From positions 2,237,805 to 2,301,804 of the forward strand of contig CP006772.1 in NCBI GenBank assembly GCA_000473305.1: a stretch of DNA of 64,000 nt. The letters are read 5' to 3'. The stretch comes from Bacteroidales bacterium CF. Its GTDB lineage: Bacteria > Bacteroidota > Bacteroidia > Bacteroidales > UBA932. The position numbers were made by a program, and so were the translations under genes. Under the pieces are notes generated by a model, which searched no databases, had not been told where the DNA came from, and saw only the letters and a list, made by a program, of their open reading frames with translations. This document shows, in pieces, positions 8,881 through 61,580 of this stretch (positions are counted from its first letter, which is position 1; every line of letters begins with the position of its first letter).

Positions 8881-10440
8881 ATGTCAAACAAGAAGATTAC
8901 AATGCTAAAGCTTAAAAGGATTTTACAATTACTGGCAGCTGGAGTCTCTCAACGGGAGATCAGCAACAAGGTTGGAATAAGCAGGTCATCTATAACAGCC
9001 TACAAGGAGAGAGCCGATTCATCGGGCAAGAGTTATCAGGAACTTTTACAAATGAGTGACTCTGATGTGGTCTCAGTGCTTCAGCGCAAGGATTACCGTC
9101 CGGGTAAAGATGCCCGTTATGACAAGCTTGAGCCTCTTCTGAAGGATTATAGCCACGACATCACACAAAATCGCAGTACATATGAGTGCCTTTGGGAGGA
9201 ATACCTGAAATTACATCCGGAGGGCTATGGATACACACGTTTCAAGGCATACATACAAGGCTATATCAAATCCCATCATTATTCATACCACAATGTATAT
9301 GCCCCGGGCTTCGAGATGCAGGTTGATTTTGCCGGAGACAAACTGAATCTGATTGATCGTAAAACTGGATTAATTACAGAGGTAGTCGTTCTGTGCTGTA
9401 TTCTTCCATATAGTTCCATTGCCTTCATAATGGCACTTTACAATGCAACCCAGGAATGTTTTTATTACGGTCTCTCAAAAGCACTGTCATATTTTGGAGG
9501 GATACCGGAATCAGTCAAGAGTGACAACATGCGTCAATGGGTGATACGTTCGGACAGGTACGAGCCGACCTTCAGCGAGTCCACCATGCAATGGAGCGTC
9601 CACTATGACACGGAGCTTGTCGCCACGAGGCCGGTTCATCCGAAGGATAAGGCTCCCGTTGAGGGATTGGTGAACAAGACATATCAGTTCGTTTATTCCC
9701 GTATACGGAATGAGGAGTATGAGACGCTTGATTCGCTTAATGCACGCATATTTGAGCTCACCGGTGAGTTCAACGGGCGTAATATGACGGGGCGCACCTA
9801 CAGCCGGATGGAACTTTTCGAGAAGGAGGAGAAGCCATTACTCAAGCCTCTTCCGGCAGAGCCATTTATGTTAAAACATAGGAAAGAGTTCCTTGTACCG
9901 TCCAGCTATCATGTCCAGATAGGAAAAGAGAGACACTCTTACAGTGTCCCCTATCAGTATGTGAATCAGAAAGCCACCGTAGTATTCGACCAGGAAAGCG
10001 TGGAGGTGTATGTTGGCTTTAACCGGGTGGCCATTCACAGACGGGATCTGAAGGCCAACGGATACACGACAGAGCCATCCCATATGCCCGAAAATCACCG
10101 TGCATATCAAAAGAGCAGAGAGTATAATGCAGCATATTATCTTGGACAGGCACGTCACATAGGGCCAAATACAACAACGGTAATAGAGCGCATCCTTACT
10201 TCACAGCCTTTCATCCAGCAGGCTTACAGATCCAGTCAGGGTATATTGTCCCTGACAAGAAAATACCCTGCCGAGAGGATAGAGGCAGCATGTGGAAGAG
10301 CTTGCGGTACTACGGCAGCTGTAAGTTATACTGCAATAAAAAGAATACTGGAGTTAAAACTTGATACGGAGCAGGTAAACACCTGTTCATCACATATACC
10401 TCTCCATGAAAATCTCAGGGGAGCATCTTCTTTCGAATAG
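8881..10440 (+). CDS. istA: IS21-family transposase IstA
   Basis: 519 aa with an N-terminal HTH and a DDE core, followed by istB. Confidence 0.9.
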   Translation: MSNKKITMLKLKRILQLLAAGVSQREISNKVGISRSSITAYKERADSSGKSYQELLQMSDSDVVSVLQRKDYRPGKDARYDKLEPLLKDYSHDITQNRSTYECLWEEYLKLHPEGYGYTRFKAYIQGYIKSHHYSYHNVYAPGFEMQVDFAGDKLNLIDRKTGLITEVVVLCCILPYSSIAFIMALYNATQECFYYGLSKALSYFGGIPESVKSDNMRQWVIRSDRYEPTFSESTMQWSVHYDTELVATRPVHPKDKAPVEGLVNKTYQFVYSRIRNEEYETLDSLNARIFELTGEFNGRNMTGRTYSRMELFEKEEKPLLKPLPAEPFMLKHRKEFLVPSSYHVQIGKERHSYSVPYQYVNQKATVVFDQESVEVYVGFNRVAIHRRDLKANGYTTEPSHMPENHRAYQKSREYNAAYYLGQARHIGPNTTTVIERILTSQPFIQQAYRSSQGILSLTRKYPAERIEAACGRACGTTAAVSYTAIKRILELKLDTEQVNTCSSHIPLHENLRGASSFE

Positions 10441-10467
10441 CAATCACTCACAAAAATTATAATTAAC

Positions 10468-11202
10468 ATGAACAACCAAGAGACACTAATCCAACTTGAA
10501 TCCCTGAAGATGAAGGGTATGGCACAGGCCTTCTCTGCCATTATGAATCTTGCACCTCACAACAGACCTCCCTTGGAACAAATAATGGCAAAGATGGTTG
10601 AGTCTGAGCTGCTTTCCAGAAATGAACGGAAGACGACAATGTATCTTAAAACAAGCAAATTGAGATACAACAGTGTCCTTGAGGAAGTTATCTGTTCTGA
10701 ACAGCGTAACTTTACCAAAGAGCAGTTACTGGATTTATCTGACTGTAGCTTTGTAAAACGAGCAGAAAACATACTCATAACGGGTAAAACCGGTTGCGGG
10801 AAAAGCTATCTTGCCTGTGCCATCGGGAAGCAGGCTTGCCACATGGGGATACGGACAGAGTACTTCGCAATGAACAAGTTCATTGAAAAGATAGCCATGG
10901 CAAAAATTGAAGGTTCATTCATTAAAGTCATCAATCATATTGAAAAAAACGACCTTATTATCTTTGACGACTTCGGATTGCAACCGCTGGATACCAACTC
11001 CCGTTTGGCTCTTCTGCAGATACTGGAAGACTTTTATGAACGAAAATCAGTTATCATTACATCCCAACTACCCGTAAAAAACTGGTACGACTATATCGGG
11101 GAACCTACTCTGGCCGATGCAATAATGGATCGTGTCACCAGTAACTCTAGAAGAGTTGAGATAAAAGGCGAATCAATGAGAAGAAAAGAGAGAAAAAATT
11201 AA
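10468..11202 (+). CDS. istB: IS21-family helper ATPase IstB
   Basis: 244 aa with Walker A GKTGCGKSYLA. AAA+ DnaC-like. Confidence 0.9.
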   Translation: MNNQETLIQLESLKMKGMAQAFSAIMNLAPHNRPPLEQIMAKMVESELLSRNERKTTMYLKTSKLRYNSVLEEVICSEQRNFTKEQLLDLSDCSFVKRAENILITGKTGCGKSYLACAIGKQACHMGIRTEYFAMNKFIEKIAMAKIEGSFIKVINHIEKNDLIIFDDFGLQPLDTNSRLALLQILEDFYERKSVIITSQLPVKNWYDYIGEPTLADAIMDRVTSNSRRVEIKGESMRRKERKN

Positions 11203-33581: not shown

Positions 33582-35135
33582 ATGGCAGGAAAAACTTTGG
33601 AAATGAATACAGTTCAACAGGTAGGGTTAATGTATCGGCAAGGAGTCGGAATCAAGGCCATTGCAAGGAATTTATCATTAAGCAAGAATACCGTAAAGAA
33701 GTACCTTCGTGAGATGGAGCTAATCAACTCCACACAAGAAGAAGGAGATTGCCGTACAGATATTGATCTCGCATCAAATGAAGAGCACCCGGATGAATGT
33801 AAGAGCCGTTTAGATATACTGCAGGAATATTTTCCTGATTACGGTAACTTATTGAAACAGCCAGGCATGACACTTCAAGTGCTGTGGCAGAGATACAAAG
33901 AGATTCATAAAGACGGATATGAATACTCTCAGTTCTGTTATCATTATCAAAAATATAATGTCACCCGTCAGGCAGTGATGCACTTTGAGCATGAGTATGG
34001 AGACCGTTTGTACCTGGATTTTGCCGGCAAAAAAGTCTCTTATGTCGAACAAGGAACAGGAGAGATCATTGATTGTGAGTTTTTTGTTGCCGTACAGGGT
34101 GGTAGTCAGGAGACATATGCCCAAGCCTGCCTAAGCCAACAGAAAGCTGATTTTATCGAGTGTGTTCAGGATGCCTTGTTTTATTACGGAGGGGTTCCCA
34201 AGGTATTGATCCCGGATAATTTGAAGAGTGCTGTAACCAAAGCCAGCAGATATGACCCTACCCTAAACGAGGACTTCCTTTCCATGGCCAACCATTACCA
34301 ATGTACGGTCATGCCAGCCAGAAGCCTCAAACCACGCGACAAGAGCCTTGTGGAACGGCATGTTTCCATTCTCTATACCCGGGTATTCACAAAGCTCCAT
34401 GGGCGTACATTCTTCTCTCTTCACGAGTTGAATGAGGCTATCGGTAAATACGTGGAAGAGCATAACAATATGCTTTTCCAGGGCAAGGAGTATAGCCGAA
34501 GGATACTGTTCGACACGTATGAAAAGGAGGCCCTTTCACCACTGCCGGCCACCCGTTTTGAGCTTAAAGATTTTGTATTTGCGACAGTCATGAAAAACTG
34601 TCACGTCCAATACCGTGTTGACAAGCACTATTATAGTGTCCCTTATCGCTATATCGGAGAAAAAGTCAAGGTTGCCGTGGGTGCATCAACAGTGGAAATC
34701 TACCTCAAAAACAACCGCATTGCGCTTCACGCCAGAGATCGCAGACCCTATAAGTACACCAGCGTAAAAGACCACCTTCCTTCCGGGCATCAATACGTAA
34801 GTGAGTGGAATCCTGATAAGTTTATACAGTGGGGAGAAAGGATAGATCCATCAGTTAGTGAATATATACGCAAGATACTGGATCGTCCGGCCTATCCGGA
34901 GACTCTTTACAGAGGCTGTTCGGGAATACTTCAATTTGAGAAGAAAGCAGGGAAGTCACGTCTTGTTGCGGCCTGTAAACTTGGCTTGCATCTTCAATCA
35001 TACAGCTATACGTTCATTCAGGGAGTCTTATCCCGTAATACCGAATCCATAGAGATAGAGGAAGCCGAAACAACCATCGAAGTGGAACATGAAAATATAC
35101 GGGGAAATGCTTACTATCAATCATTATTTAACTAA
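33582..35135 (+). CDS. istA: IS21-family transposase IstA
   Basis: 517 aa with an HTH and a DDE core. Homologous to but clearly divergent from 8881..10440. Confidence 0.9.
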   Translation: MAGKTLEMNTVQQVGLMYRQGVGIKAIARNLSLSKNTVKKYLREMELINSTQEEGDCRTDIDLASNEEHPDECKSRLDILQEYFPDYGNLLKQPGMTLQVLWQRYKEIHKDGYEYSQFCYHYQKYNVTRQAVMHFEHEYGDRLYLDFAGKKVSYVEQGTGEIIDCEFFVAVQGGSQETYAQACLSQQKADFIECVQDALFYYGGVPKVLIPDNLKSAVTKASRYDPTLNEDFLSMANHYQCTVMPARSLKPRDKSLVERHVSILYTRVFTKLHGRTFFSLHELNEAIGKYVEEHNNMLFQGKEYSRRILFDTYEKEALSPLPATRFELKDFVFATVMKNCHVQYRVDKHYYSVPYRYIGEKVKVAVGASTVEIYLKNNRIALHARDRRPYKYTSVKDHLPSGHQYVSEWNPDKFIQWGERIDPSVSEYIRKILDRPAYPETLYRGCSGILQFEKKAGKSRLVAACKLGLHLQSYSYTFIQGVLSRNTESIEIEEAETTIEVEHENIRGNAYYQSLFN

Positions 35136-35147
35136 ACATCACCGCCT

Positions 35148-35870
35148 ATGAATCAGAACACATTGGAACAACTGCATGCCATGAAACTATTTGGCATGGC
35201 CAACTCTTTCAAGGCTCTCATCGAGAGTCATTCCCTGGAACAATATACCCATGACCAGATGGTTGCAGCCTTAGTGCAGGCAGAGTGGGAAGGACGGGAA
35301 CACAAGAAGATAGCACACAACATAAGTCAGGCAAAGTTCCGTTACACTGCCTCCATCGAAGAGATAGATTACACCTATCCCCGAAATCTGGACAAGAATC
35401 AGATGCTCCGTTTCACAGACTGCTCATACATAAAGAATGCTGAAAACATACTGGTGTCGGGAGCTACCGGGGTTGGGAAGAGCTATATAATATCAGCCCT
35501 TGGATATCAGGCCTGTATAATGGGATATAAAGTTGGTTATTACAATCTGCAAAAACTATTGACAGCACTTCGTATAGCAAAAGCGGACGGGTCTTATCTA
35601 AAAACACTCAGTAGGATAGAAAAACAGGACCTTCTTATCTTAGACGATTATGGGCTGCAGCCTCTCGATAATAATGCCTGTATAAATCTTTTGGAGCTTA
35701 TCGAGGACAGATATGGAAGACGTGCAACTATCATGTCCTCACAGCTTCCCTTTGACAAGTGGTATGACATCTGCACGGCTAAGACAATCGCCGATGCAAT
35801 CTTTGACAGACTAATAAACGGTTCTCACAAAATCCAATTGAAAGGGGAATCAATGAGAAAAAAAAGATAA
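35148..35870 (+). CDS. istB: IS21-family helper ATPase IstB
   Basis: 240 aa with Walker A GATGVGKSYI. Confidence 0.9.
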   Translation: MNQNTLEQLHAMKLFGMANSFKALIESHSLEQYTHDQMVAALVQAEWEGREHKKIAHNISQAKFRYTASIEEIDYTYPRNLDKNQMLRFTDCSYIKNAENILVSGATGVGKSYIISALGYQACIMGYKVGYYNLQKLLTALRIAKADGSYLKTLSRIEKQDLLILDDYGLQPLDNNACINLLELIEDRYGRRATIMSSQLPFDKWYDICTAKTIADAIFDRLINGSHKIQLKGESMRKKR

Positions 35871-36546: not shown

Positions 36547-37449
36547 ATGAGAAAAAAGTCAGGATCAACCATTATCGAGAGGGCTCTGGATTGTGTGCCG
36601 GGATTCGACCGTGTCTTCCAGAAGCTCCAGCAGCAGGTGGTTTTGCGGGGTCAAAGCAAAAGCACCCTCAACAACTACATCCGCCGTGTAGCTGCAATAT
36701 CACTACATTTCGGGAGATTGCCGGAATTAATCGCAGATGAGGAGATCAACGAGTATCTAACTGCCCTGGCCCTGTCTGCAAAATCACCATCCAGAAGTAA
36801 TTTTAAACATTCCGTTTATGGGCTACGCTATTATTATAGGCTGCTTGGTCAGAACAAACGGGCGATCTCTCTTCCCTCCCTAAAGAAGGACGCCAGGTTG
36901 CCTGTCATATTTAATCGTGCGGAACTAAAGGAATTATTCAAGGCACCCTCACTGCTAAAACACCGCATAGTATTGACCCTGATCTATTCTGCCGGACTAC
37001 GCGGCCAGGAGGTCATTAATCTAAAACTTGCCGATATAGACTTTGAACGCAAGACCATACATATCCGACAAAGCAAGTATAAAAAGGACCGTATTGTCCC
37101 TCTTTCCGGATATATGTCTGATGGGTTGAAAAAGTATATTGCAGCAGAGAATCCTGTTCTATGGCTGTTCAACGGAAAAGAACCGGATGGTCGCTACAGT
37201 GTCCGGGGACTCTCGTGGGTAATGAGGGAGACGCTAAAAAAGACCTCAATCAAAAAGGATGTCAACCTCCATTCACTCAGGCACAGCTATGCAACGCACC
37301 TCCTCGAAGACGGGCTGAACATCGTCACCCTAAAGGAGCTCCTGGGCCATGCCGAGATCACCACCACGATGATCTACCTTCATGTGGCACAATGCCCGCT
37401 TATAAAGCCCCACAGCCCGCTGGACACACTGTATGGCGACAGGAAATGA
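36547..37449 (+). CDS. tyrosine recombinase (phage-integrase family), IS91-associated
   Basis: 300 aa with a C-terminal catalytic region (HSLRHSYATHLLEDGLNIVTLKELLGHAEITTTMIYLHV). Its stop overlaps the start (ATGA) of the IS91-family transposase. Lacks the extra IntI-specific insertion, so it is not an integron integrase. Confidence 0.8.
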   Translation: MRKKSGSTIIERALDCVPGFDRVFQKLQQQVVLRGQSKSTLNNYIRRVAAISLHFGRLPELIADEEINEYLTALALSAKSPSRSNFKHSVYGLRYYYRLLGQNKRAISLPSLKKDARLPVIFNRAELKELFKAPSLLKHRIVLTLIYSAGLRGQEVINLKLADIDFERKTIHIRQSKYKKDRIVPLSGYMSDGLKKYIAAENPVLWLFNGKEPDGRYSVRGLSWVMRETLKKTSIKKDVNLHSLRHSYATHLLEDGLNIVTLKELLGHAEITTTMIYLHVAQCPLIKPHSPLDTLYGDRK

Positions 37450-38012
37450 GCCGCCCTCAACACGAAGTCGCGGAGGTGATAAAGCTTTTTGGTCAACGGT
37501 TTTGTGAAGAGTGCCAGCCAAACGGGTATCAGAAACGGGTACTCAATGCCCTTTCGCTATGCCGCTCTCCTGCCCTTGGCGGTCACAAGGAAAAGTGCGA
37601 TTGCTGTGCAAAGGAGAGGATCAGCTACAACAGCTGCCGCAACCGTCATTGTCCGAAGTGCCAGGGTTCGAAACAGGCTTTCTGGGTCGAAGATCTTCTG
37701 GAAGCTACCCTGCAGGTAAAACATTACCACATCGTCTTTACAGTACCGCACGAGCTGAACCATATTTGCCTGCTAGACAGCAAATGGTTCTACGAGAAGT
37801 TGTTTGCAAGCGTATGGGAAACAATCCAACAATTTGGATATAATCGGTATGGAGTTGAAAGCGGTGCTGTCTGTGTGTAAGCATTCGACAAAACCCCTCT
37901 TTCCTATTTCTACAAAACAAACGTTCTTGCAGAGTTTGGACAATTTAGCCCATCTTGGTCAAAAGCTAACTGTTAGATAAAAAGGATGTTGAGTTACTGT
38001 GTAAAACTACGT

Positions 38013-39590
38013 TCAATCCATTTTAGACGAATCAGGACTCATTAGTGATTCTGGATGTTGCTCGATCCATTTGTCGGGCATCAGTGAATCAAGGCTCTCT
38101 TTTTTGTCAAGGACATAGGGTAATTGGTTCAAGACATCTATAAGGTAATGCCGGGTATTAATGTTTTGTTCCCTGCAACATCCTGTGAGAGTAAAAATCA
38201 TGGCTGCATTAAAAGCCGCATTGTGATTCCCGCAAAAAAGAAAATTTTTCCGTGAAACGGTAACCGGTCTGATTGCATTTTCTGCCGGATTGTTGTCTAT
38301 TTTCAGGTTGCCGTCATAAATATACCTGCTAAGCCCCTGGATTCTGCTGTAATTGTATGACATCGCCTTACCTATCTTGCTTTTTGGCAGTACCGTCTTA
38401 TAGTTTTGCTCTATCCATTTTTCCAGATTCCTTATTATGGGCAAGGCCAACCTTTGCCTTTCTGCTTCTATCTGGACAGGGGAGTATTGCTTATCTTTGA
38501 AGACCCTTTCAAGTTTGTACAGCAGTTGTATCTGCCCCAATGCGTACTGGGCCAGTGTTTTGTTCTCTACTAACGAAGATTCATAATTTCGACGACAGTG
38601 TGCCCAGCAGTTAATGAGCGTTACGGAAGGATTCTTGTCAAAAATCTCGTATGCGCAATAGCCATCTGTCTGGAGTGTACCTTTGAAGTCCTTGAAGATT
38701 TCGCGGACAACTTTAGCGGAGCGGGAACCGTCCCGGTAATCAAAAAACAGGAGTTTTTCTTTCACCGCCCGTGCCATCCAAAGATACTCCTTGTCGGCTT
38801 TCTTCTTTTCCCGGTTTATTACAGGCAACGTGGTTTCGTCCGCCTGTAGGTAATTAGAAGACAGCACCCTTTCCCTGATTTTTTCATACAAGGGTTTGAT
38901 CAGGCCACAGGAAGAGGCAAACCAGTCGTTTATTGTGGTTGCAGATAGCTTAAGGCCTAGTTCCTTGAACTGTTTGGTTTGTCTGTAAAAAGGAAGGTGG
39001 TGGACATACTTTTGCAACAACAACTCTGCAATCAAGGTGGACCCCGCCGATCCTTTGTATATTGGGAGCAATGGCATCGGGGCTATAATAATGGCAGGCA
39101 TGTCCCCGACAGTGTTGGTTTGGTTTATTAAAGCGTATTTTGGCCGTACGATGTCCAGTACAAACAGTTTGCCCGGCTCAAATTCTATGACTTTGGTATG
39201 CTCTTCTCCGATCCTCCTGTATTTGGTCAAATCTATGTCATTGGGTTCAATCACGCTTTCGACAACCGGCAACCCTTCCATTGATTCTTGTCTCGGTTTG
39301 CGAGGTTTGACCTTCTGCTGTATCATTACTTGTTCAAGCTCCTGTTCACTTGCTTTGCTGTCAGCCAGGGAGTCGATTTGGTCTGAAAGCTCGGCAAAAA
39401 GGCCTGGAAGAGGGGTGATATTAGGATATTTTTCGCTTATTGAACCGAACATCTTACGTTTGAACCATGCCAGTTGGGAAAGGAGTTCATTGAGCTGTTT
39501 TTGCAACTCAGCCAATTGTTGGTCCTTTTGCTTCTCCCTCTCGAGAGATGCTTCCAGCATACTTATTAATGATGAAATTGATTGGTCCAC
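38013..39590 (-). CDS. IS66-family transposase (TnpC)
   Basis: 525 aa with an N-terminal leucine zipper, a DDE core and the CWAHCRR motif. Confidence 0.85.
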   Translation of the reverse strand: MDQSISSLISMLEASLEREKQKDQQLAELQKQLNELLSQLAWFKRKMFGSISEKYPNITPLPGLFAELSDQIDSLADSKASEQELEQVMIQQKVKPRKPRQESMEGLPVVESVIEPNDIDLTKYRRIGEEHTKVIEFEPGKLFVLDIVRPKYALINQTNTVGDMPAIIIAPMPLLPIYKGSAGSTLIAELLLQKYVHHLPFYRQTKQFKELGLKLSATTINDWFASSCGLIKPLYEKIRERVLSSNYLQADETTLPVINREKKKADKEYLWMARAVKEKLLFFDYRDGSRSAKVVREIFKDFKGTLQTDGYCAYEIFDKNPSVTLINCWAHCRRNYESSLVENKTLAQYALGQIQLLYKLERVFKDKQYSPVQIEAERQRLALPIIRNLEKWIEQNYKTVLPKSKIGKAMSYNYSRIQGLSRYIYDGNLKIDNNPAENAIRPVTVSRKNFLFCGNHNAAFNAAMIFTLTGCCREQNINTRHYLIDVLNQLPYVLDKKESLDSLMPDKWIEQHPESLMSPDSSKMD

Positions 39591-39660
39591 TTACTGCTTT
39601 TTGTATATATAAAAGTAGTAAATATCAGCTTAATAAGCAAGTAAAATAAGTGTTTTTTAG

Positions 39661-40020
39661 TTAAAAAGATGATAGTATTTTAAGCCTTTTCCTTCGTGAG
39701 AAAACATCCTCTTTTATACCCTCGACCATCATGACAAGGTCCTTCCACTCCATGGGAAATGAGTTACTCTCATTGTCATAATTTGGTAGTAAAAAAGTCC
39801 CTTGTTCCAGCTTCTTTATGTACAGGACAAGACCACCACGCTCTGCATGGAGTAGTTTGATGGTGTCCTTTTTCTTATTAATAAAAATATAAACATCTCC
39901 ACTACGAACATCCTGTTTCATGTTGTTCTTGACAACACCACTGAGAGTGTAGAATGATTTCCTCATATCCGTTGCGCCTGGACAAAGGTAGTAGCGCATT
40001 GAATCATTAAGGCTGAACAT
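39661..40020 (-). CDS. IS66 Orf2 (TnpB accessory protein)
   Basis: 119 aa, typical IS66 Orf2 (..DMRKSFYTLSGVV..GDVYIFINKKKDTIKLL..). Confidence 0.8.
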   Translation of the reverse strand: MFSLNDSMRYYLCPGATDMRKSFYTLSGVVKNNMKQDVRSGDVYIFINKKKDTIKLLHAERGGLVLYIKKLEQGTFLLPNYDNESNSFPMEWKDLVMMVEGIKEDVFSRRKRLKILSSF

Positions 40021-40023
40021 AGA

Positions 40024-40392
40024 CTAAAACTGATTTAGTAATGTCTTGAAAACATCAAGGTCAATGATTCCCCGCATCTTTATCTGCAGACCAGTAGGGT
40101 GGACTATCTCCAACTCCATCGATGACCTGATGCCTGGCTGTTCCGGACTAACGATATCCTGACCTACCTCATTTGCTGTATTGCCTATGAGCATTATTGG
40201 TGATAAATGAGATGTGCTCTTATGCCCCCTGATGTCTGATCCGTCTCCCCATTTTCGTAACCAATAATAAAACGAGGACTTGGTATATCCGTATGTTTTG
40301 CAAAAATCCTCCTTAGTAAGTCCGCTGGCCTTATATTCCATGTAAATCTCTTTGAATTTTGACTCTTGCATGCGGGTTGAATATTTTCTCAT
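40024..40392 (-). CDS. IS66 Orf1 (TnpA, HTH)
   Basis: 122 aa with a helix-turn-helix (FCKTYGYTKSSFYYWLRKW). Confidence 0.75.
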   Translation of the reverse strand: MRKYSTRMQESKFKEIYMEYKASGLTKEDFCKTYGYTKSSFYYWLRKWGDGSDIRGHKSTSHLSPIMLIGNTANEVGQDIVSPEQPGIRSSMELEIVHPTGLQIKMRGIIDLDVFKTLLNQF

Positions 40393-41486
40393 AGTTTTTG
40401 CCCAAAGGTAAAACCTATGGAATACCGTTACAATATGTATTCGCTCGAATACTTACGTCTGTGTCCTTCACACATGGGGACAGAATCTCAGTTTTCATCC
40501 TCACATCCATTGCATTGTCCCTGCCGTGGGAGAATCATTTGCAGGAAACATGAAATACATAGGCAGCGGGGGAAAGTACCTTTACCCGGAAAGACAGTTG
40601 AGTGCCGTGTTCCGTGGAAAGCTGATGCAGAGCATCGCGGCCCGGTTGGGACGCGATGGATTACCACAAGATGTCCGAACTGTTATGAAAGACCTCTGGA
40701 ACAAGGCTTGGGTTGTTCATTGTGAGCCATCTATGGCAAGGCCGGAACATGTGATCCGATATCTGGGGCAATACACTCACAGGGTGGCAATCACAAACCA
40801 GCGGATAATTGACATCAATGACCGGAATGTGACATTCATGCACAAGGATTACGCCGACGGCGCAAGACAGAAACCAATATCCCTCGATGGCGTGGAGTTC
40901 CTCAGAAGGTTCTGCATGCATATCCTCCCACACAGGTTCGTCAAGATAAGACGATACGGTATATACAGCAGCCGGGTAAGGGCTTTAAAGAAGAGTCTGG
41001 AAAATCCTAAGATGACCATAAATGTCGGGGCTACAGAAAGTGTGCAACAGAGGTTGAAACGGCTTACCGGCTTTGACATCTGCCTGTGTCCGTTTTGCAA
41101 GCTGGGAAAAATGCACAGGATAGAAGAGGTACCCAGGGTGCGTTCTCCTACTATTATGTATTCACAGGCGGGTGCCGGACAAATATAAAATCAGGAGACT
41201 ATTTTGCAATCTGCATTTTTTTGTGGATGGCCTTGCTCTTGTCCGGAGCAGACAACAATCCGGAAAATGTTGACACTTCAGAAAATTATAAATCTTGAGT
41301 GCCTGGAATCCTGCAAAAAAACACGTATCCAAAGTATGACATTGAGGGATTGCCTGCCTGCTTTATCCCATAAAATATAAAACCGGAAACCTGAAATCCG
41401 TTGATAAGTCCATAGCTAAACTGTCCGGGATGTAGTTCAACATGGACTTCAAGTTCGGCATTGCATGCCACATAAAGTCCTATTTA

Positions 41487-41894
41487 TTAGCGGTAGTTAT
41501 TTATCAATTCATTAATGGAGTCAGCAATCTTCACAAGTCCACCTGTTTCATGTAACCAAAGAAAGATTTCATCATTCAACTGTTTTCCATTATTCTTATC
41601 TATCAATAAAACAAGGTAATCTCCGCATCCATTACTAGCAATTGAGATGGCACTTTCAGGAAAGTCATCCCATTCTTTTGCTTGTTTAGTTTCATGAATA
41701 ATATGATTGCAAGTTCTACTAATTCTCTTATTATCCGTCTTATCAAAAAAAGGAAATAGTTGCCAATCATCTTCATCTGTTTGGATTTCTCCTCCATTTT
41801 CAAGCATCATCTTTTGTTTGAAAATGTCCGGGAAAAATAGTCCTAATTCCTTTTCAGTATCTTGAATGAATTTTAAATCAACCGGGAATGGCAT
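41487..41894 (-). CDS. SMI1/KNR4 (SUKH-1) family immunity-type protein
   Basis: 135 aa. ..SIASNGCGDYLVLLIDKNNGK..IFLWLHETG.. is typical of SUKH-1 proteins. Confidence 0.6.
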   Translation of the reverse strand: MPFPVDLKFIQDTEKELGLFFPDIFKQKMMLENGGEIQTDEDDWQLFPFFDKTDNKRISRTCNHIIHETKQAKEWDDFPESAISIASNGCGDYLVLLIDKNNGKQLNDEIFLWLHETGGLVKIADSINELINNYR

Positions 41895-41933: not shown

Positions 41934-42062
41934 TTATAATTACCGCTAACGGTTTAGTGTATGTGCCGTAAGGGATTGCGGGGCAGTTTCCTGTCCACCG
42001 ACACGAAAGTTTGAGCGGGCTACAATGCTTAAAATCCCACTGAAACCCTTATGGCATATACA
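41934..42062 (-). other. attC-like site (about 129 bp)
   Basis: CGCTAACGG|TTTAGTGTATGTGCCGTAAGGG...CCCTTATGGCATATACAC TTTGTTAGCC. Confidence 0.7.
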
Positions 42063-42102
42063 CTTTGTTAGCCTTTCGCCCTTTGTTTTAATCATTTTTT
42101 CA

Positions 42103-42501
42103 TTAGTCAATATTCCAATATGCATCAGGTTCGCCGTCTAATACATCATCAATAAAATCATCACTTAAACCCTCAACGTCTTGAGCATAAGAACCAGCAT
42201 ATTTTCCATATGATTCCCTTTCGTTATAATCATCGTAATCATTATATTCTTCATCGTAATCTTCTTGTTCGCCTTCCCATTGTTCGTATTTTTCATTGAG
42301 TTTATTCACACCTTCTTCCGAGATTTTAAAGTCTGAATTAGATACTTTAATTTCTTCTATTACTTCTTCTGAAATATAAAAGTGGTCTAAATTGATTGCA
42401 CACCAATCAAGATATGCAGGTTGTATTTCAAGAATTTCCCTCACAGTTTTCCCTTCGTATTTGCCAAAGGTAAATTCTGTATCTAAGTTGTAAAATTTCA
42501 T
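42103..42501 (-). CDS. small acidic hypothetical protein
   Basis: 132 aa with a D/E/Y-rich C-terminus. Its start overlaps the stop of the upstream 611-aa gene. Confidence 0.5.
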   Translation of the reverse strand: MKFYNLDTEFTFGKYEGKTVREILEIQPAYLDWCAINLDHFYISEEVIEEIKVSNSDFKISEEGVNKLNEKYEQWEGEQEDYDEEYNDYDDYNERESYGKYAGSYAQDVEGLSDDFIDDVLDGEPDAYWNID

Positions 42502-44333
42502 GATTTAGATTTTATTAAAGTATTAAACAAATAATTATCAATAAAATATTGTAGTTTATGATTTTCACTGTCAAAAATTAGATTGGTAAAAGTTTTAGGT
42601 AAATTAGCAAAACCAGTGTATGCACCATAAAGCATAAAAGCAACTTTTTTGTTTTTAACACTTTTTGCAATTAGCATTTTGTTGATTTGGTCGTGTCCTT
42701 GCAATTTCATTAAAAATATAATTATGCTTGCCAAAATATCATTTACAGGGAATACAAAATTGTCAGATTTAGCAGTGCGGTATAAGTAATATTCTCGTAG
42801 AGTGTTTTTTAAATCACTGTCAGGTAAATGTTTTCCTATTTCTGCAATTATTTTTAAGACATTCTCTTCAGAATAATTACCAAGGCGACCCTGAGGAAAA
42901 GATAAGACAGAATTAAGCGAAATGTTTAATAATTCAATTTCCTGTTTTGAAATCTTGTCTGATAAAACATCTGGTAGTTGAATAGAAAAATTGCTATATG
43001 ATTGATTCTTTTCAAAATAGAAGTTTGTCAATGAATCAAGGTCAATTTTGATTGAAATATCAGGCAATTCACTATCTTTATTATTTTTAGAAAGAAAGTA
43101 GTTATTTGTTTTTTTAACAATGTCATTCAACTGCTCGGTAATACGGTTGAATTGCTCGTTAATTGAAGTGTCAAATTGAGTTCCGCCTTGTTGAAAGTTC
43201 TTTATTCTACCTTCAAGAGCATAAACATTATTTTTCAATGCTTTATATTCATTGTCATTCTTCTCAAATTCCTCAATTTCATTTTTCAATTCTTGTTTGC
43301 GATAAAATTTTTCGGGGTTTTCTTCCTTTTTGTAATATTCACGTTTTTTACCTTTTGCTTCGCCTCTCTCTTTTTCTTCTTGTTTTATTTTCTCAAATTC
43401 TTCTTTTAACGGTGTAATATTGTACTTACACTCGTAAAGATATACTTCTCTTCGTGCTTGTTCTAAATTCTCTTGTTCTGTTTCAAAATCTCGTTTGTAA
43501 TTTTGACTTTTTTGTTTTGAGAATTCCTCGCAACGCATTTTATTTAAATTGTCAACTTCTTGCAATCTTAAAGTAAGTGTCCTGAATATATCAGAGGTTT
43601 TATTGTCAAATTGTTTTTTGTATCGTTCTTCGCAATCTCGGATTTGCTTCTTTACATTAATAAGCCAAAAGTTTGAATATTGTTCTGACAGTGCAATGTC
43701 GGTATGAACGCCACCGATTGTGTTTTTAAGTTTAGTTAAATCTGAAACTAATCCCTGTTCGTTCTCATCTAAAGACCCAAGTGAACCGACAACATATCCA
43801 TAAATTAGCCCTTTGATTTGATTAAAAGCTTTGTCAAAAAATGGTTCTTTTTCGCTTTGTTCTGAAAGAATTTTTTGTTGATATGAAACTTGTCTTAATT
43901 GTTTTGGTTTATTTTCTGAAATGATAAAACTTTCCGATTTATATTTATTGACAGTCTTGACTTCCAAAAGCATAAATTGTTGATTTAAAAACTCTAACAA
44001 TTTGACTTCATTCTCAAAATGAACTTTGAAATGTCCTTTTTTTAAATAAATTGTTTTGTAGTATTCGTAGTAGCCAAGTTTTGAGTCTTGTAATACTGTT
44101 TTATCTAATAATTCTGGATAAATTTCAATGATAATTTCGCTGGCAACAGGTTCTTCAAACATCACTAGATAATTGGCATCTTCAAATCGTCCTTCATTGC
44201 GGTTTACAGGATTCCCAAAACCACGAATAGCATAAAATGAAATAGGCGATATGCTCTCGGTTGTAAAAACCTCGTTTAAGTTCCATTGGTTTATTGGCAA
44301 CCACAAATGATTTTTTATTTTTTTCTTTGCCAT
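42498..44333 (-). CDS. large hypothetical protein (611 aa) with a central Lys/Glu-rich coiled-coil
   Basis: No recognisable catalytic motif. Translationally coupled to the helicase gene (2-nt spacing). Confidence 0.55.
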   Translation of the reverse strand: MAKKKIKNHLWLPINQWNLNEVFTTESISPISFYAIRGFGNPVNRNEGRFEDANYLVMFEEPVASEIIIEIYPELLDKTVLQDSKLGYYEYYKTIYLKKGHFKVHFENEVKLLEFLNQQFMLLEVKTVNKYKSESFIISENKPKQLRQVSYQQKILSEQSEKEPFFDKAFNQIKGLIYGYVVGSLGSLDENEQGLVSDLTKLKNTIGGVHTDIALSEQYSNFWLINVKKQIRDCEERYKKQFDNKTSDIFRTLTLRLQEVDNLNKMRCEEFSKQKSQNYKRDFETEQENLEQARREVYLYECKYNITPLKEEFEKIKQEEKERGEAKGKKREYYKKEENPEKFYRKQELKNEIEEFEKNDNEYKALKNNVYALEGRIKNFQQGGTQFDTSINEQFNRITEQLNDIVKKTNNYFLSKNNKDSELPDISIKIDLDSLTNFYFEKNQSYSNFSIQLPDVLSDKISKQEIELLNISLNSVLSFPQGRLGNYSEENVLKIIAEIGKHLPDSDLKNTLREYYLYRTAKSDNFVFPVNDILASIIIFLMKLQGHDQINKMLIAKSVKNKKVAFMLYGAYTGFANLPKTFTNLIFDSENHKLQYFIDNYLFNTLIKSKS

Positions 44334-44334
44334 A

Positions 44335-45726
44335 TTATTGATAAACTACATCTTGTGAGTTAGCATCTTTTAATAAATTTGTGAGTTTGCGCGAATAAGT
44401 TATAAACAAACGACTACTTGAACGGGTACATCCAACATAAAAAGCGTTTCTATCTGTTTTGTTGTCGTCATTAGCAAATGGAATAAAAACATTGTCAAAT
44501 TCGGTACCTTTAGCACTATGGAAAGATAATAAACAAGGTAAATCATGATTTGTAAAATCAAGCGTATCTACTTTTGTGAATCCAGAAATTGTATTGCTAT
44601 TAACTGTATATCTAACTTGTGTACTTATTCCTTTGCTAGCAAGTAATTCATAAACTTTTTTTACATCATTATTTTCCCAAATTAATATACCAACATCATC
44701 TAACCCTTCTGTTTGAATACGATTGACTATATATTGAATTTCTTCATCCTCCGAATTACATTTTTTTATAATTGGTTTAGGAAAATCAGGAAAATCGCTT
44801 TTGCCGTTATTTTTGCGATTATTTGAAAGCAAATCTACATGTGGTTGTGGAATTGTTTGTGCAACTTTCGCAACCGTTATAGGTACACGATAGTTGAAAT
44901 CAAGTTTCTTCAAAGGATAATTGAAATGTTCAACAATTTCTTCAACATTAGTTCCACGATTTCTATATAATTGTTGGTTGGTGTCACCAAAAATTGTAAT
45001 TGCCTTTCCTGCTTTGGAAATAAAGTTGCTTTTATAGTCACTGATTGAAAAATCCTGTCCTTCGTCAATTATAAGATAATTAACAAGCCCTTTTTCTTTA
45101 AATAAGAAACCACTAGGTATAAATTTATCTTCCTGCGGTGCAAAATTATAATCAAGCACTTGAATTTCTCTAAATAATCTTTCTCTTCGATAAAAAGTTC
45201 TATAAAGAAAATCTGACACCCATTCATCAAAGTCAATTGAGACTTCTAAAGGATTTTCAATTTTTGCTACTTTATAATTCAAATACTTGCCTGTTTGTAT
45301 TGCCGTGTCATAATCAGAAGTATTGTAGCGCTTTTCCCATTTATCGTTATAAGTACCACAACCTCCAATTGCCATAAAATACCTAATATTATTATCACTT
45401 TCTTGTAGGATAAGCAATTGGCTGTCGTGAAAATATAGGGCACCAGAAATTTCAATACCTCTGTGTATCCATGACCACTCATGAACAACACGGTCTTTGT
45501 CAAGGCCTAATTCTGTTAGTCCGTAACGAACCATTTTTTTTAATGCAACTGTATAAACCACAATTACAAACGAATTGTCACCAGCTTGGTTGGCACGGTA
45601 GATAGCCATATTTGTTTTACCGCTTCCCGCAGCACCTTTCACTACCAAATTTTGATTGATAGAAACTTTCAGTACCTCTTGTTGAGAAGTGTCAGGATTT
45701 GTAATAAACCAATTTTCTAATCTCAT
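44335..45726 (-). CDS. UvrD-like superfamily-1 helicase (short, about 460 aa)
   Basis: Walker A GAAGSGKT, motif II IIDEGQDFS and a C-terminal FYVGCTRSSSRLFITY (motif VI). Confidence 0.65.
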   Translation of the reverse strand: MRLENWFITNPDTSQQEVLKVSINQNLVVKGAAGSGKTNMAIYRANQAGDNSFVIVVYTVALKKMVRYGLTELGLDKDRVVHEWSWIHRGIEISGALYFHDSQLLILQESDNNIRYFMAIGGCGTYNDKWEKRYNTSDYDTAIQTGKYLNYKVAKIENPLEVSIDFDEWVSDFLYRTFYRRERLFREIQVLDYNFAPQEDKFIPSGFLFKEKGLVNYLIIDEGQDFSISDYKSNFISKAGKAITIFGDTNQQLYRNRGTNVEEIVEHFNYPLKKLDFNYRVPITVAKVAQTIPQPHVDLLSNNRKNNGKSDFPDFPKPIIKKCNSEDEEIQYIVNRIQTEGLDDVGILIWENNDVKKVYELLASKGISTQVRYTVNSNTISGFTKVDTLDFTNHDLPCLLSFHSAKGTEFDNVFIPFANDDNKTDRNAFYVGCTRSSSRLFITYSRKLTNLLKDANSQDVVYQ

Positions 45727-45773
45727 ATTTTTTCAAATTTATCATTTCGAGCTCTGTCTTTTTTAGGGTGAAG

Positions 45774-46150
45774 GCTAACGGTTTCGGGTGTAGTTCGGCC
45801 ACCCTGTCCTCTTGCAAACCCATTGCCTCCGGTGGCTGAACTATACCTGGTGTTATAACCAGCTTCGATTTCAGTACAAGATCAAATCGCCTTTGGCTCA
45901 TGGTTTTGCCTTATAAAGATAGAAACTTTATTTATTAAGTTGAACACAGATTGTCCTAAAAATCAACGAACAAACCCAATATTTACACTAAGGGTTAAAT
46001 CAGATCCGAATTGAATCGCAAAACCTGTGACAAAGGCGCGGTAATATTATTGAAAATAGAAAAGAGACTCCTACACTTAAATACACTCTCTTAAAGCAAA
46101 AATCAGATAATCGGCACACACTTCAGCTCTTACAACTTTTCTTTAGTTGG
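45774..46150 (-). repeat. non-coding cassette type 1 (attC-A + NC1)
   Basis: Near-identical copy. attC-A 45774-45859, NC1 45860-46150. Confidence 0.7.
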
Positions 46151-46400: not shown

Positions 46401-46528
46401 ATTAACGGATGGCGGTATGGTTAGTTGCCGATTTCGAAGCACTTTCCTGTCAAGTTACAACTACTTTTGATACGAGCTGTGCCGCTCGAATACCCACTGC
46501 ACCGGCAATTAACTATACCGCGTGTTGG
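46401..46528 (-). other. attC-like site (about 128 bp)
   Basis: CATTAACGG|ATGGCGGTATGGTTAGTTGCCG...CGGCAATTAACTATACCGCG TGTTGGC. The centre shares a TTTCGAAGCACTTTCCTGTCAAGTTACAACTACTTTTGATACGAGCTG block with other sites. Confidence 0.7.
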
Positions 46529-46697
46529 CAACTGGTGTTCATTCATATCCGTCTGTATTTCATATATTTAGCTTTATTTTCTTGTCATTATCAATCTGCA
46601 CGAACCTATCTACAAAGTACAAATTTATTTTGTTTTTTTGAGCGTGGGCAATCCCAAAACCGTCCTGAAAGGCGGTTACTCGGGCAGGAGAGGCGGA

Positions 46698-46756
46698 AGC
46701 TCTTCCCGCAAACTTTGGATTTGGTTTGGCTTTGAGCGGTTTGCGGGATGTGCTTA
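46698..46756 (+). repeat. bracket motif copy M5 (3' side of the TonB/TCS cassette)
   Basis: GCTCTTCCCGCAAACTTTGGATTTGGTTTGGCTTTGAGCGGTTTGCGGGATGTGCTTAC. Confidence 0.55.
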
Positions 46757-46770
46757 CGACTGTGGGATGG

Positions 46771-61438: not shown

Positions 61439-61580
61439 AATGAATTTAGTTTAAAGTCCGCCTTCTTTGCAGACAAAATTTTTCACCTACTCTTTTCTCG
61501 GTTTTCGGTTTCCCCGTTTTTTTAGAATTCTGATGAAAATTTCTCGCTTCTTGCTTTTGGCTGTCGCTCGGCACTTGCAC

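Follow-up and report, generated by a model that had tools for sequence, protein, structure and literature searches.

A three-gene cassette bounded by attC sites

We analyzed a stretch of 64,000 nucleotides from Bacteroidales bacterium CF (assembly GCA_000473305.1, contig CP006772.1, positions 2,237,805 to 2,301,804; hereafter "the window"), in which an initial annotation had pointed to a helicase-containing gene module as a candidate defense system. Three open reading frames (ORFs) lie there as that annotation described them, all on the minus strand and encoding proteins of 463, 611, and 132 amino acids (aa). Gene 1 (45726..44335) encodes a superfamily 1 (SF1) UvrD-like helicase or translocase. 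Gene 2 (44333..42498) encodes a large partner protein, which we propose to be the effector of the system and in which an ADP-ribosyltransferase (ART)-fold domain is predicted to be followed by a long bundle of helices and then by a helical domain at the C terminus. Gene 3 (42501..42103) encodes a small protein with an ExoX-like_C domain and an acidic tail rich in D, E, and Y. The junction between the helicase and partner genes reads TAA-T-ATG and thus holds a spacer of 1 nt, not of 2 nt as first claimed; genes 2 and 3 do overlap by 4 nt, as that annotation stated.

The three genes are enclosed by two attC-type recombination sites. The 11-mer AAACCGTTAGC occurs at both ends of the unit (45774-45784 and 41945-41955) and has no other exact copy in the window, and at each boundary this copy closes an imperfect inverted repeat whose bottom strand folds more stably than 200 of 200 shuffled sequences (z ~-3.4). 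The upstream boundary (45774..45860, minus strand) is the attC-like site of the preceding cassette, with arms at 45787-45803 and 45831-45847 that are 88% complementary, a bottom-strand folding energy of -18.6 kcal/mol (z -3.4), and a recombination point that we infer to lie at G/TTAGCC (45779/45778). It ends in GTTAGC, as does the downstream boundary, which is the attC of the cassette itself (41944..42073, minus strand; GCTAAC...GTTAGC, point G/TT at 41950/41949) and whose bottom strand forms a hairpin of -25.2 kcal/mol (z -3.4) that none of 200 shuffles equals. Imperfect inverted repeats, a GTTRRRY-type core, and a folded bottom strand, which together characterize the 3' attC of an integron cassette, are therefore all found at 41944-42073. 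With recombination taken at G/TT, the cassette spans 45778..41950, or 3,829 nt, and the G+C content inside it (~30% between 42 and 45 kb) compares with 38-46% in the flanks. A gapless attC scan of the window returned no site, and a fold-based heuristic scan for attC-like structures returned two, namely, the cassette's own attC and one inside a gene.

The same junction recurs in other organisms. In several metagenomes, the unit is assembled as a contig of its own. Independent contigs of this kind (L047-L049), 3.6-3.9 kb long and with a system of 81% identity, start at the same GTTAGCC junction, and the end of the longest of them, L047, falls within the equivalent downstream attC. The 5' end of the cassette, GTTAGC(C/G)(G/T)TCAC(T/C)CT, is found again before the helicase gene in Flavobacterium (L003) and Emticicia (L004), so that L047, L003, and L004 all have a GTTAGC junction upstream of this gene, and the downstream attC has a near-identical counterpart in contig L001 (see below) and a related one in L047. 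Together with the shared 11-mer, the inverted repeats, and the folding of the bottom strands, this recurrence with the junction at the attC core confirms the earlier proposal that the helicase, partner, and gene 3 make up one mobile attC-bounded cassette.

The helicase and the 611-aa protein form a conserved two-gene core

The helicase contains the GAAGSGKT, DEGQD, and VGCTRSS motifs that were read from it initially, and all its ATPase motifs are intact. It matches UvrD_C (7e-14) and UvrD-helicase (9e-8) in Pfam and phrog_1967 (2e-26) in PHROG, and its relatives among solved structures are HelD, UvrD, and PcrA (E ~1e-6). None of motifs Q, I, II, III, IV, V, and VI varies across 39 family members, with Q15, GxAGSGK37, DExQD225, GDxxQ251, R280, KG407, and R435 invariant, and this constancy of the motifs argues that the protein is probably a competent ATPase. 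Residues 216-360 align with residues 211-362 of PcrA and residues 399-446 with the end of UvrD_C. Since only ~40 residues are left at the position where PcrA and UvrD hold their 2B domain, the protein, judged by its length and alignment ranges, appears to have lost this domain.

Homologues of the 611-aa protein fall into 122 clusters at 90% identity, none of which bears a functional name, and a profile search (E below 1e-3) retrieved 815 representatives at 50% identity. To assess gene order, we considered 46 loci from species-representative genomes, 42 of which retain DNA upstream of the partner gene. In all 42, the gene immediately before that of the partner encodes a helicase homologue, down to a partner identity of ~25%, and the same applies to seven of seven loci from a viral collection and to two metagenome loci. 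As the helicase holds this position in every locus with upstream DNA, we conclude that the helicase and the 611-aa partner are a conserved two-gene core. Of the three-gene module proposed at the outset, this pair stands; gene 3 is not constant, and only its acidic tail recurs. A tblastn search against plasmids found no relative of the 611-aa protein, and the helicase matches obtained there were set aside as belonging to unrelated systems, such as a DUF1998/DISARM-like operon.

All named sources of gene 2 homologues are Bacteroidota, with the exception of one metagenome-assembled genome (MAG) labeled Methanolobus sp. (L001, JAVEPM010000231.1), which holds a near-identical cassette including its attC. 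An archaeal origin of this homologue was rejected, as longer contigs with the same protein carry Bacteroidota-type genes and the insertion sequence (IS) IS21; the archaeal label more likely stems from misbinning than from transfer between domains. In L001 and in several further metagenome contigs (L054, 9383-12213; L055; L056), the helicase has shrunk to a decayed C-terminal remnant; in L054 and L055, which are longer, IS21 stands immediately before this remnant. The large partner and the small protein are intact in these contigs (87-93% identity), and the variant is present in several samples. That the partner persists beside a decayed helicase shows that it is tolerated without the motor and suggests that the putative ART effector is not lethal in its absence.

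The 611-aa protein has a predicted ADP-ribosyltransferase fold

At the level of sequence libraries, the initial description of the 611-aa protein as lacking a recognizable domain holds: no significant match was found in Pfam, PADLOC, PHROG, NCBIfam, or the sequences of the Protein Data Bank (PDB), and searches with the single sequence, with profiles, and with 45 family members returned only coiled-coil noise and one faint match of residues 10-98 to the ADP-ribosyltransferase model 2CompART in Pfam (E 0.044). Structure prediction leads to a different result. In the AlphaFold2 model of the protein (predicted local distance difference test score [pLDDT] 88, predicted template modeling score [pTM] 0.77), residues ~10-138 (43920..44306, minus strand) adopt a DarT/Tpt1-like ART fold with the signature T-E-S-I-S-P-x-x-F-Y-x-x-R-x-F-G. 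The fold matches of this domain (match score and aligned residues in parentheses) are E. coli DarT1 (8baq; 9.4, 124), yeast Tpt1 (7yw4; 8.5, 103), M. tuberculosis DarT (7yk3; 8.5, 115), Thermus DarT (7omv; 8.5, 120), and Thermosipho DarTG (7omu; 8.4, 120). Because most of the other matches listed are ADP-ribosyltransferases too (enterotoxin, OspC3, PARPs, pertussis toxin, diphtheria toxin, pierisin, and RES), the assignment of the predicted N-terminal domain to this fold appears robust.

E26 and K126 do not vary within the 45 family members, whose pairwise identity is ~20%, and S27, S29, P30, Y34, R37, F39, and G40 are conserved in at least 90%. That polar residues stay constant at such divergence suggests that the domain may have preserved an active site. 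One reading of such a site is that the domain consumes NAD+ rather than modifying a target, i.e., that it is an NAD+ glycohydrolase like the RES, SPN, and Tne2 toxins, switched on by a helicase that senses phage DNA, and that the infected cell is killed or arrested as its NAD+ is lost. We consider such an NAD+-depleting effector improbable.

The remainder of the protein (residues 163-611; 42501..43847, minus strand) is predicted to be all-helical, with long antiparallel helices at residues ~190-420 and a C-terminal helical domain at ~430-611. Residues 171-186, NQIKGLIYGYVVGSLG, align with the N-terminal glycine motif of ADP-ribosylglycohydrolases (ARHs), and residues 555-580 align with the helix that bears their GGDTDT motif, with the acidic residues of the motif replaced. 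It is tempting to speculate that the helical region may be an ARH-like core that has degenerated and is interrupted by inserted helices, which we offer as a lead and not as a result. In addition, a C4 zinc ribbon of the topoisomerase type (PF01396; E 1.4e-7 at best) is present in two of the 45 divergent homologues, which would be consistent with a function directed at DNA.

Gene 3 is an accessory component with a recurring acidic tail

The product of gene 3 is identical to BRDCF_p1979 of Bacteroidales bacterium CF. Its residues 10-39 (nt 42385-42474) match ExoX-like_C (PF20600, E 2.9e-18, 65.4 bits versus a cutoff of 26.5), as well as the C-terminal region of exodeoxyribonuclease X in NCBIfam (E 1.2e-6), and residues ~96-132 (nt 42106-42216) form the D/E/Y-rich tail. 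We found 268 homologues, many of which share contigs with gene 2 homologues, and the full-length protein is confined to the subclade nearest the system in the window. The part that recurs beyond it is the C-terminal tail of ~35 aa, Y..Y.GSYAQDVEG.SD..IDDVFDGDPDAYWN.D. In L024, L026, and L027, whose partner proteins are only ~30% identical, this tail forms a separate ORF of 46-47 aa immediately behind the partner gene, and in L014 it is joined to the C terminus of the helicase; other D/Y-rich tails adjoin the helicase-partner pair in L006, L015, and L028. Gene 3 is thus an accessory and not a constant member of the system. By the Rosetta-stone argument, the fusion in L014 makes it plausible that the tail acts physically with the helicase.

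Relatives lie beside defense genes and in larger operons

In at least eight loci, the helicase-partner pair adjoins known defense genes, a setting that the initial annotation had suggested looking for. The immediate neighbors of minimal two-gene versions include WYL regulators, a retron-type reverse transcriptase (RT), SspA/SspC, TmtA, a PDC-M62A/PtuA-like ATPase, and an LmuA-like protein. These neighbors also bear on an alternative in which the unit is not primarily anti-phage, serving instead either as an addiction module of the toxin-antitoxin type, which would stabilize the array of cassettes or the mobile element, or as an accessory with which mobile elements process DNA. Toxin-antitoxin cassettes are carried by chromosomal integron arrays, and the unit resides in an integron cassette beside IS elements; moreover, a small acidic partner is typical of antitoxins, and a gene read by eye from its translation as relaxase- or mobilization-like precedes the pair in L014. 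However, the neighbors that recur are defense genes (Ssp, Tiamat, Lamassu-like, Septu-like, retron RT, and WYL) rather than conjugation or replication genes, relatives occur on only 7 of 2.9 million viral contigs, and addiction and defense are not mutually exclusive, as DarTG illustrates. We therefore regard a primarily addictive or DNA-processing role as distinctly improbable.

In half of the related loci (L015-L019, L022, L023, L030, L038; L031-L045; L066), which are the more distant ones, the pair is part of a four-gene operon that encodes, in order, an S-adenosylmethionine (SAM)-methyltransferase-like protein (in some cases fused to NERD), the helicase, the partner, and a DUF1848 protein (PF08902, 1.8e-92). 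In PADLOC, the methyltransferase-like protein resembles the N-terminal methylase region of RT_UG35 (6e-8), and the last gene matches RTasDUF1848 (4e-42). We found no reverse transcriptase in the cassette of the window or in the four-gene relatives. These resemblances suggest a chassis of methyltransferase, helicase, and DUF1848, common with the UG25/UG35 reverse-transcriptase systems, that accepts interchangeable effectors.

Comparison with known systems

The initial annotation saw no obvious known counterpart of this gene combination. This has to be revised, since DarHTG (Liu-DS3), which was experimentally validated in 2026, sets a precedent: it joins a 2B-less UvrD-like helicase, DarH, to DarT and an ARH-like antitoxin, DarG3, protects E. 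coli against T4, T5, and T7, and is reported to be commonest in Thermodesulfobacteriota and Bacteroidota (Nucleic Acids Res 2026; PMC13069673). Compared by its published description, DarHTG is the system that the cassette family most resembles in fold-level architecture, with a UvrD-like helicase, a DarT-like ART, and possibly an ARH-like part; the family is not a member of it at the sequence level. In the cassette, the ART and the putative ARH-like part reside in one 611-aa chain, with a helical bundle of ~230 residues between them, and no DarT hidden Markov model (HMM) of PADLOC or Pfam detects this chain. Furthermore, the GGDTDT motif of ARHs has apparently lost its acidic residues, which makes an enzymatic antitoxin unlikely, and the acidic-tail peptide or ExoX_C protein is an additional component. 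The distance to DarTG, in which the single-stranded DNA thymidine ADP-ribosyltransferase DarT is paired with the macrodomain protein DarG, is larger still: the cassette system has no macrodomain or NADAR partner and no DarT sequence signature, and it has an obligatory helicase partner and a much larger, multidomain effector candidate.

Two further systems were considered because of the helicase. Gabija, composed of the ATPase-TOPRIM nuclease GajA and the UvrD-like helicase GajB, likewise combines a short UvrD-like helicase with a larger partner. The GajB models of PADLOC, however, match gene 1 only partially (best 1.6e-17), and several helicase families do so equally weakly, among them RTasHel (8e-18, also partial) and a NERD+UvrD model of equal score. 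As stated initially, the partner lacks the ABC-ATPase and TOPRIM features of GajA; none appears in Pfam or PADLOC or in the predicted fold, which consists of an ART domain and helical bundles, and a GajA/OLD-type partner is thus ruled out. An Nhi-like arrangement, in which one polypeptide unites a nuclease and an SF1 helicase, does not apply either, given that the Pfam scan shows no nuclease domain in the helicase and that the Nhi model covers only its residues 215-267 (E 1.6e-5).

The UG25/UG35 class 1 UG/Abi reverse transcriptases are accompanied by methylase, UvrD-helicase, and DUF1848 parts (Mestre et al. 2022, PMC9226505). Likeness to them lies in the RTasHel match of the helicase and in the accessory genes of the relatives described above. 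In contrast to these systems, the present family has the ART-fold protein in the place of a reverse transcriptase, the cassette in the window lacks the methyltransferase-like and DUF1848 genes, and the function of UG25/UG35 is itself unproven. As for the mode of carriage, two preprints describe defense systems in integron gene cassettes, with integrons studied mainly in Proteobacteria (bioRxiv 10.1101/2024.07.02.601686 and 10.1101/2024.07.02.601719). The cassette agrees with such cases in being a compact multigene system between attC sites that is found in different arrays and genomes, and it differs in its Bacteroidota host and in that the ORFs scanned in the window include no integron integrase.

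Surroundings of the cassette

No integron integrase (IntI) or attI was identified in the window, in which some but not all ORFs were scanned, the one at 36547-37449 being the only tyrosine recombinase among them. This recombinase was rejected as an integron integrase, as it is paired with an IS91-family transposase and hence IS91-associated; the same pair of integrase and IS91 transposase is annotated on a Photobacterium plasmid. With only two attC-like sites found, the locus resembles an integrase-free attC cluster. Directly past the attC of the cassette, where a next cassette would stand, lies a gene for a SUKH/SMI1-KNR4 immunity-type protein (41487-41894, minus strand; PF09346, 1.4e-19). 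No attC was found after this gene, and the array may have been truncated by the IS91 fragment. The region at 36547-41188 contains what seems to be an IS91-family element split by an IS66-family insertion: the tyrosine recombinase, a Zn_Tnp_IS91 fragment (37161-37880), and a Y2_Tnp fragment (40526-41188) belong to the split element, and an IS66 transposase (38013-39590) is inserted in it.

On the other side of the cassette, a noncoding stretch of ~900 nt upstream contains two strong imperfect palindromes (46412-46521 and 46691-46761), the first of which reads GTTAG...TTAAC, the reverse of the order in attC. Within the cassette, TAAATTTG is located at 45734-45741 (minus strand), 8 nt upstream of the ATG of the helicase; the motif is not kept in L047 or L003. 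It fits the -7 promoter consensus of Bacteroides, TAnnTTTG, which hints at a possible cassette-internal promoter and a nearly leaderless mRNA. Elsewhere in the window, two pairs of ORFs of ~517 and 240 aa (8881-11202 and 33582-35870, plus strand) resemble istA/istB of IS21 by size and arrangement only, and the sole Rfam match is a DUF805b RNA motif (61484-61518, minus strand; 42.1 bits, E 1.4e-8, above the gathering score).

A possible anti-phage mechanism

Taken together, we propose that the cassette encodes a mobile, integron-borne anti-phage system of the abortive-infection or toxin-antitoxin-like kind, with an SF1 UvrD-like motor and a predicted ADP-ribosyltransferase effector at its core, a reading that we regard as evenly poised between right and wrong. 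It is supported by the conserved gene pair, the invariant motifs, the DarHTG precedent, the defense-island neighbors, the mobility of the cassette, the fusion of tail and helicase, and the zinc ribbon. In this proposal, the three genes would be expressed from one transcript, with translation probably coupled, as the tight junctions imply. The 2B-less helicase would load on invading or replicating phage DNA and expose single strands by ATP-driven translocation or unwinding. At the N terminus of the 611-aa protein, the DarT-like domain would then ADP-ribosylate single-stranded nucleic acid in an NAD+-dependent manner and thereby block replication or transcription; both the activity and the target are assigned by analogy to DarT and DarHTG, to a fold that is itself predicted. 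The helical remainder of the protein would serve as a scaffold or as an inhibitor in cis and may be a catalytically dead ARH-like domain. Finally, the acidic tail of gene 3 could be a regulator, an antitoxin, or a nucleic acid mimic that contacts the helicase, as the L014 fusion would imply.

Several observations weigh against this proposal. Neither of the classical catalytic triads, H-Y-E and R-S-E, could be mapped onto the ART-fold domain. Apart from the faint 2CompART match, there is no sequence-level link to DarT, Tpt1, or another ART: the DarT models of Pfam, PADLOC, and NCBIfam match neither the 611-aa protein nor any of the 45 divergent family members, a profile search of PDB sequences found no DarT, and hhalign against E. 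coli KptA (Tpt1) gave no alignment. A Foldseek search of the PDB with the full-length model returned no match below an E value of 0.1. As to the helical part, hhalign against the ARHs YegU, MJ1187, and ARH3 was not significant (probability ~1%), and, the acidic residues of the GGDTDT motif being replaced, the system has no obvious eraser or antitoxin enzyme. Lastly, the association with defense islands is qualitative and drawn from selected loci.

The lack of a recognized triad and of a sequence-level ART match would also fit a domain that is not an enzyme at all, but a sensor or scaffold that binds, for instance, NAD+, ADP-ribose, or phage-modified nucleic acid. The effector would then be either the helicase itself, stalling or stripping replication or transcription complexes in the manner of HelD- or Rep-like motors, or accessory genes that the minimal cassette lacks (NERD, DUF1848). 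Indeed, the closest NCBIfam and PDB matches of the helicase include HelD, a motor that recycles RNA polymerase, and half of the relatives contain extra enzymes (NERD nuclease-like, methyltransferase-like, and DUF1848). On the other hand, polar residues of the ART domain that remain invariant at ~20% pairwise identity are typical of an active site, and minimal two-gene versions are widespread and occur in defense islands without accessory enzymes. On balance, a noncatalytic ART domain seems unlikely to us.

Beyond the proposal of an anti-phage system with an ADP-ribosyltransferase effector, the data can be drawn together into a more elaborate picture, which we put forward tentatively and with more doubt than belief. 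The cassette might represent a hitherto unrecognized, Bacteroidota-wide defense family, with 815 representatives at 50% identity that escape PADLOC and Pfam, in which a DarT-like ART is fused through a long helical bundle to a catalytically dead ARH-like domain as its built-in inhibitor, fired by a dedicated 2B-less helicase, and tuned by an acidic peptide of ~35 aa, and in which the helicase-partner pair is one exchangeable effector of a chassis of methyltransferase, helicase, and DUF1848, in a place otherwise taken by UG25/UG35 reverse transcriptases.

Implications

If the proposed function is correct, immunity by ADP-ribosylation of nucleic acids would extend to a large family of Bacteroidota, including gut and rumen Bacteroidales and Prevotella. 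As current defense-finding HMMs miss the gene 2 family, the defense inventories of these phyla would be undercounted. The family would also offer a natural design in which toxin and pseudo-eraser share a single chain and the regulator is the size of a peptide, and thus insight into how DarT-type toxins are restrained and licensed by helicases. The cassette would further mean that integron cassettes of Bacteroidota move complete multigene defense systems. Finally, the shared methyltransferase, helicase, and DUF1848 parts suggest a tie between this family and two uncharacterized reverse-transcriptase systems, and with it a common chassis that can be tested.

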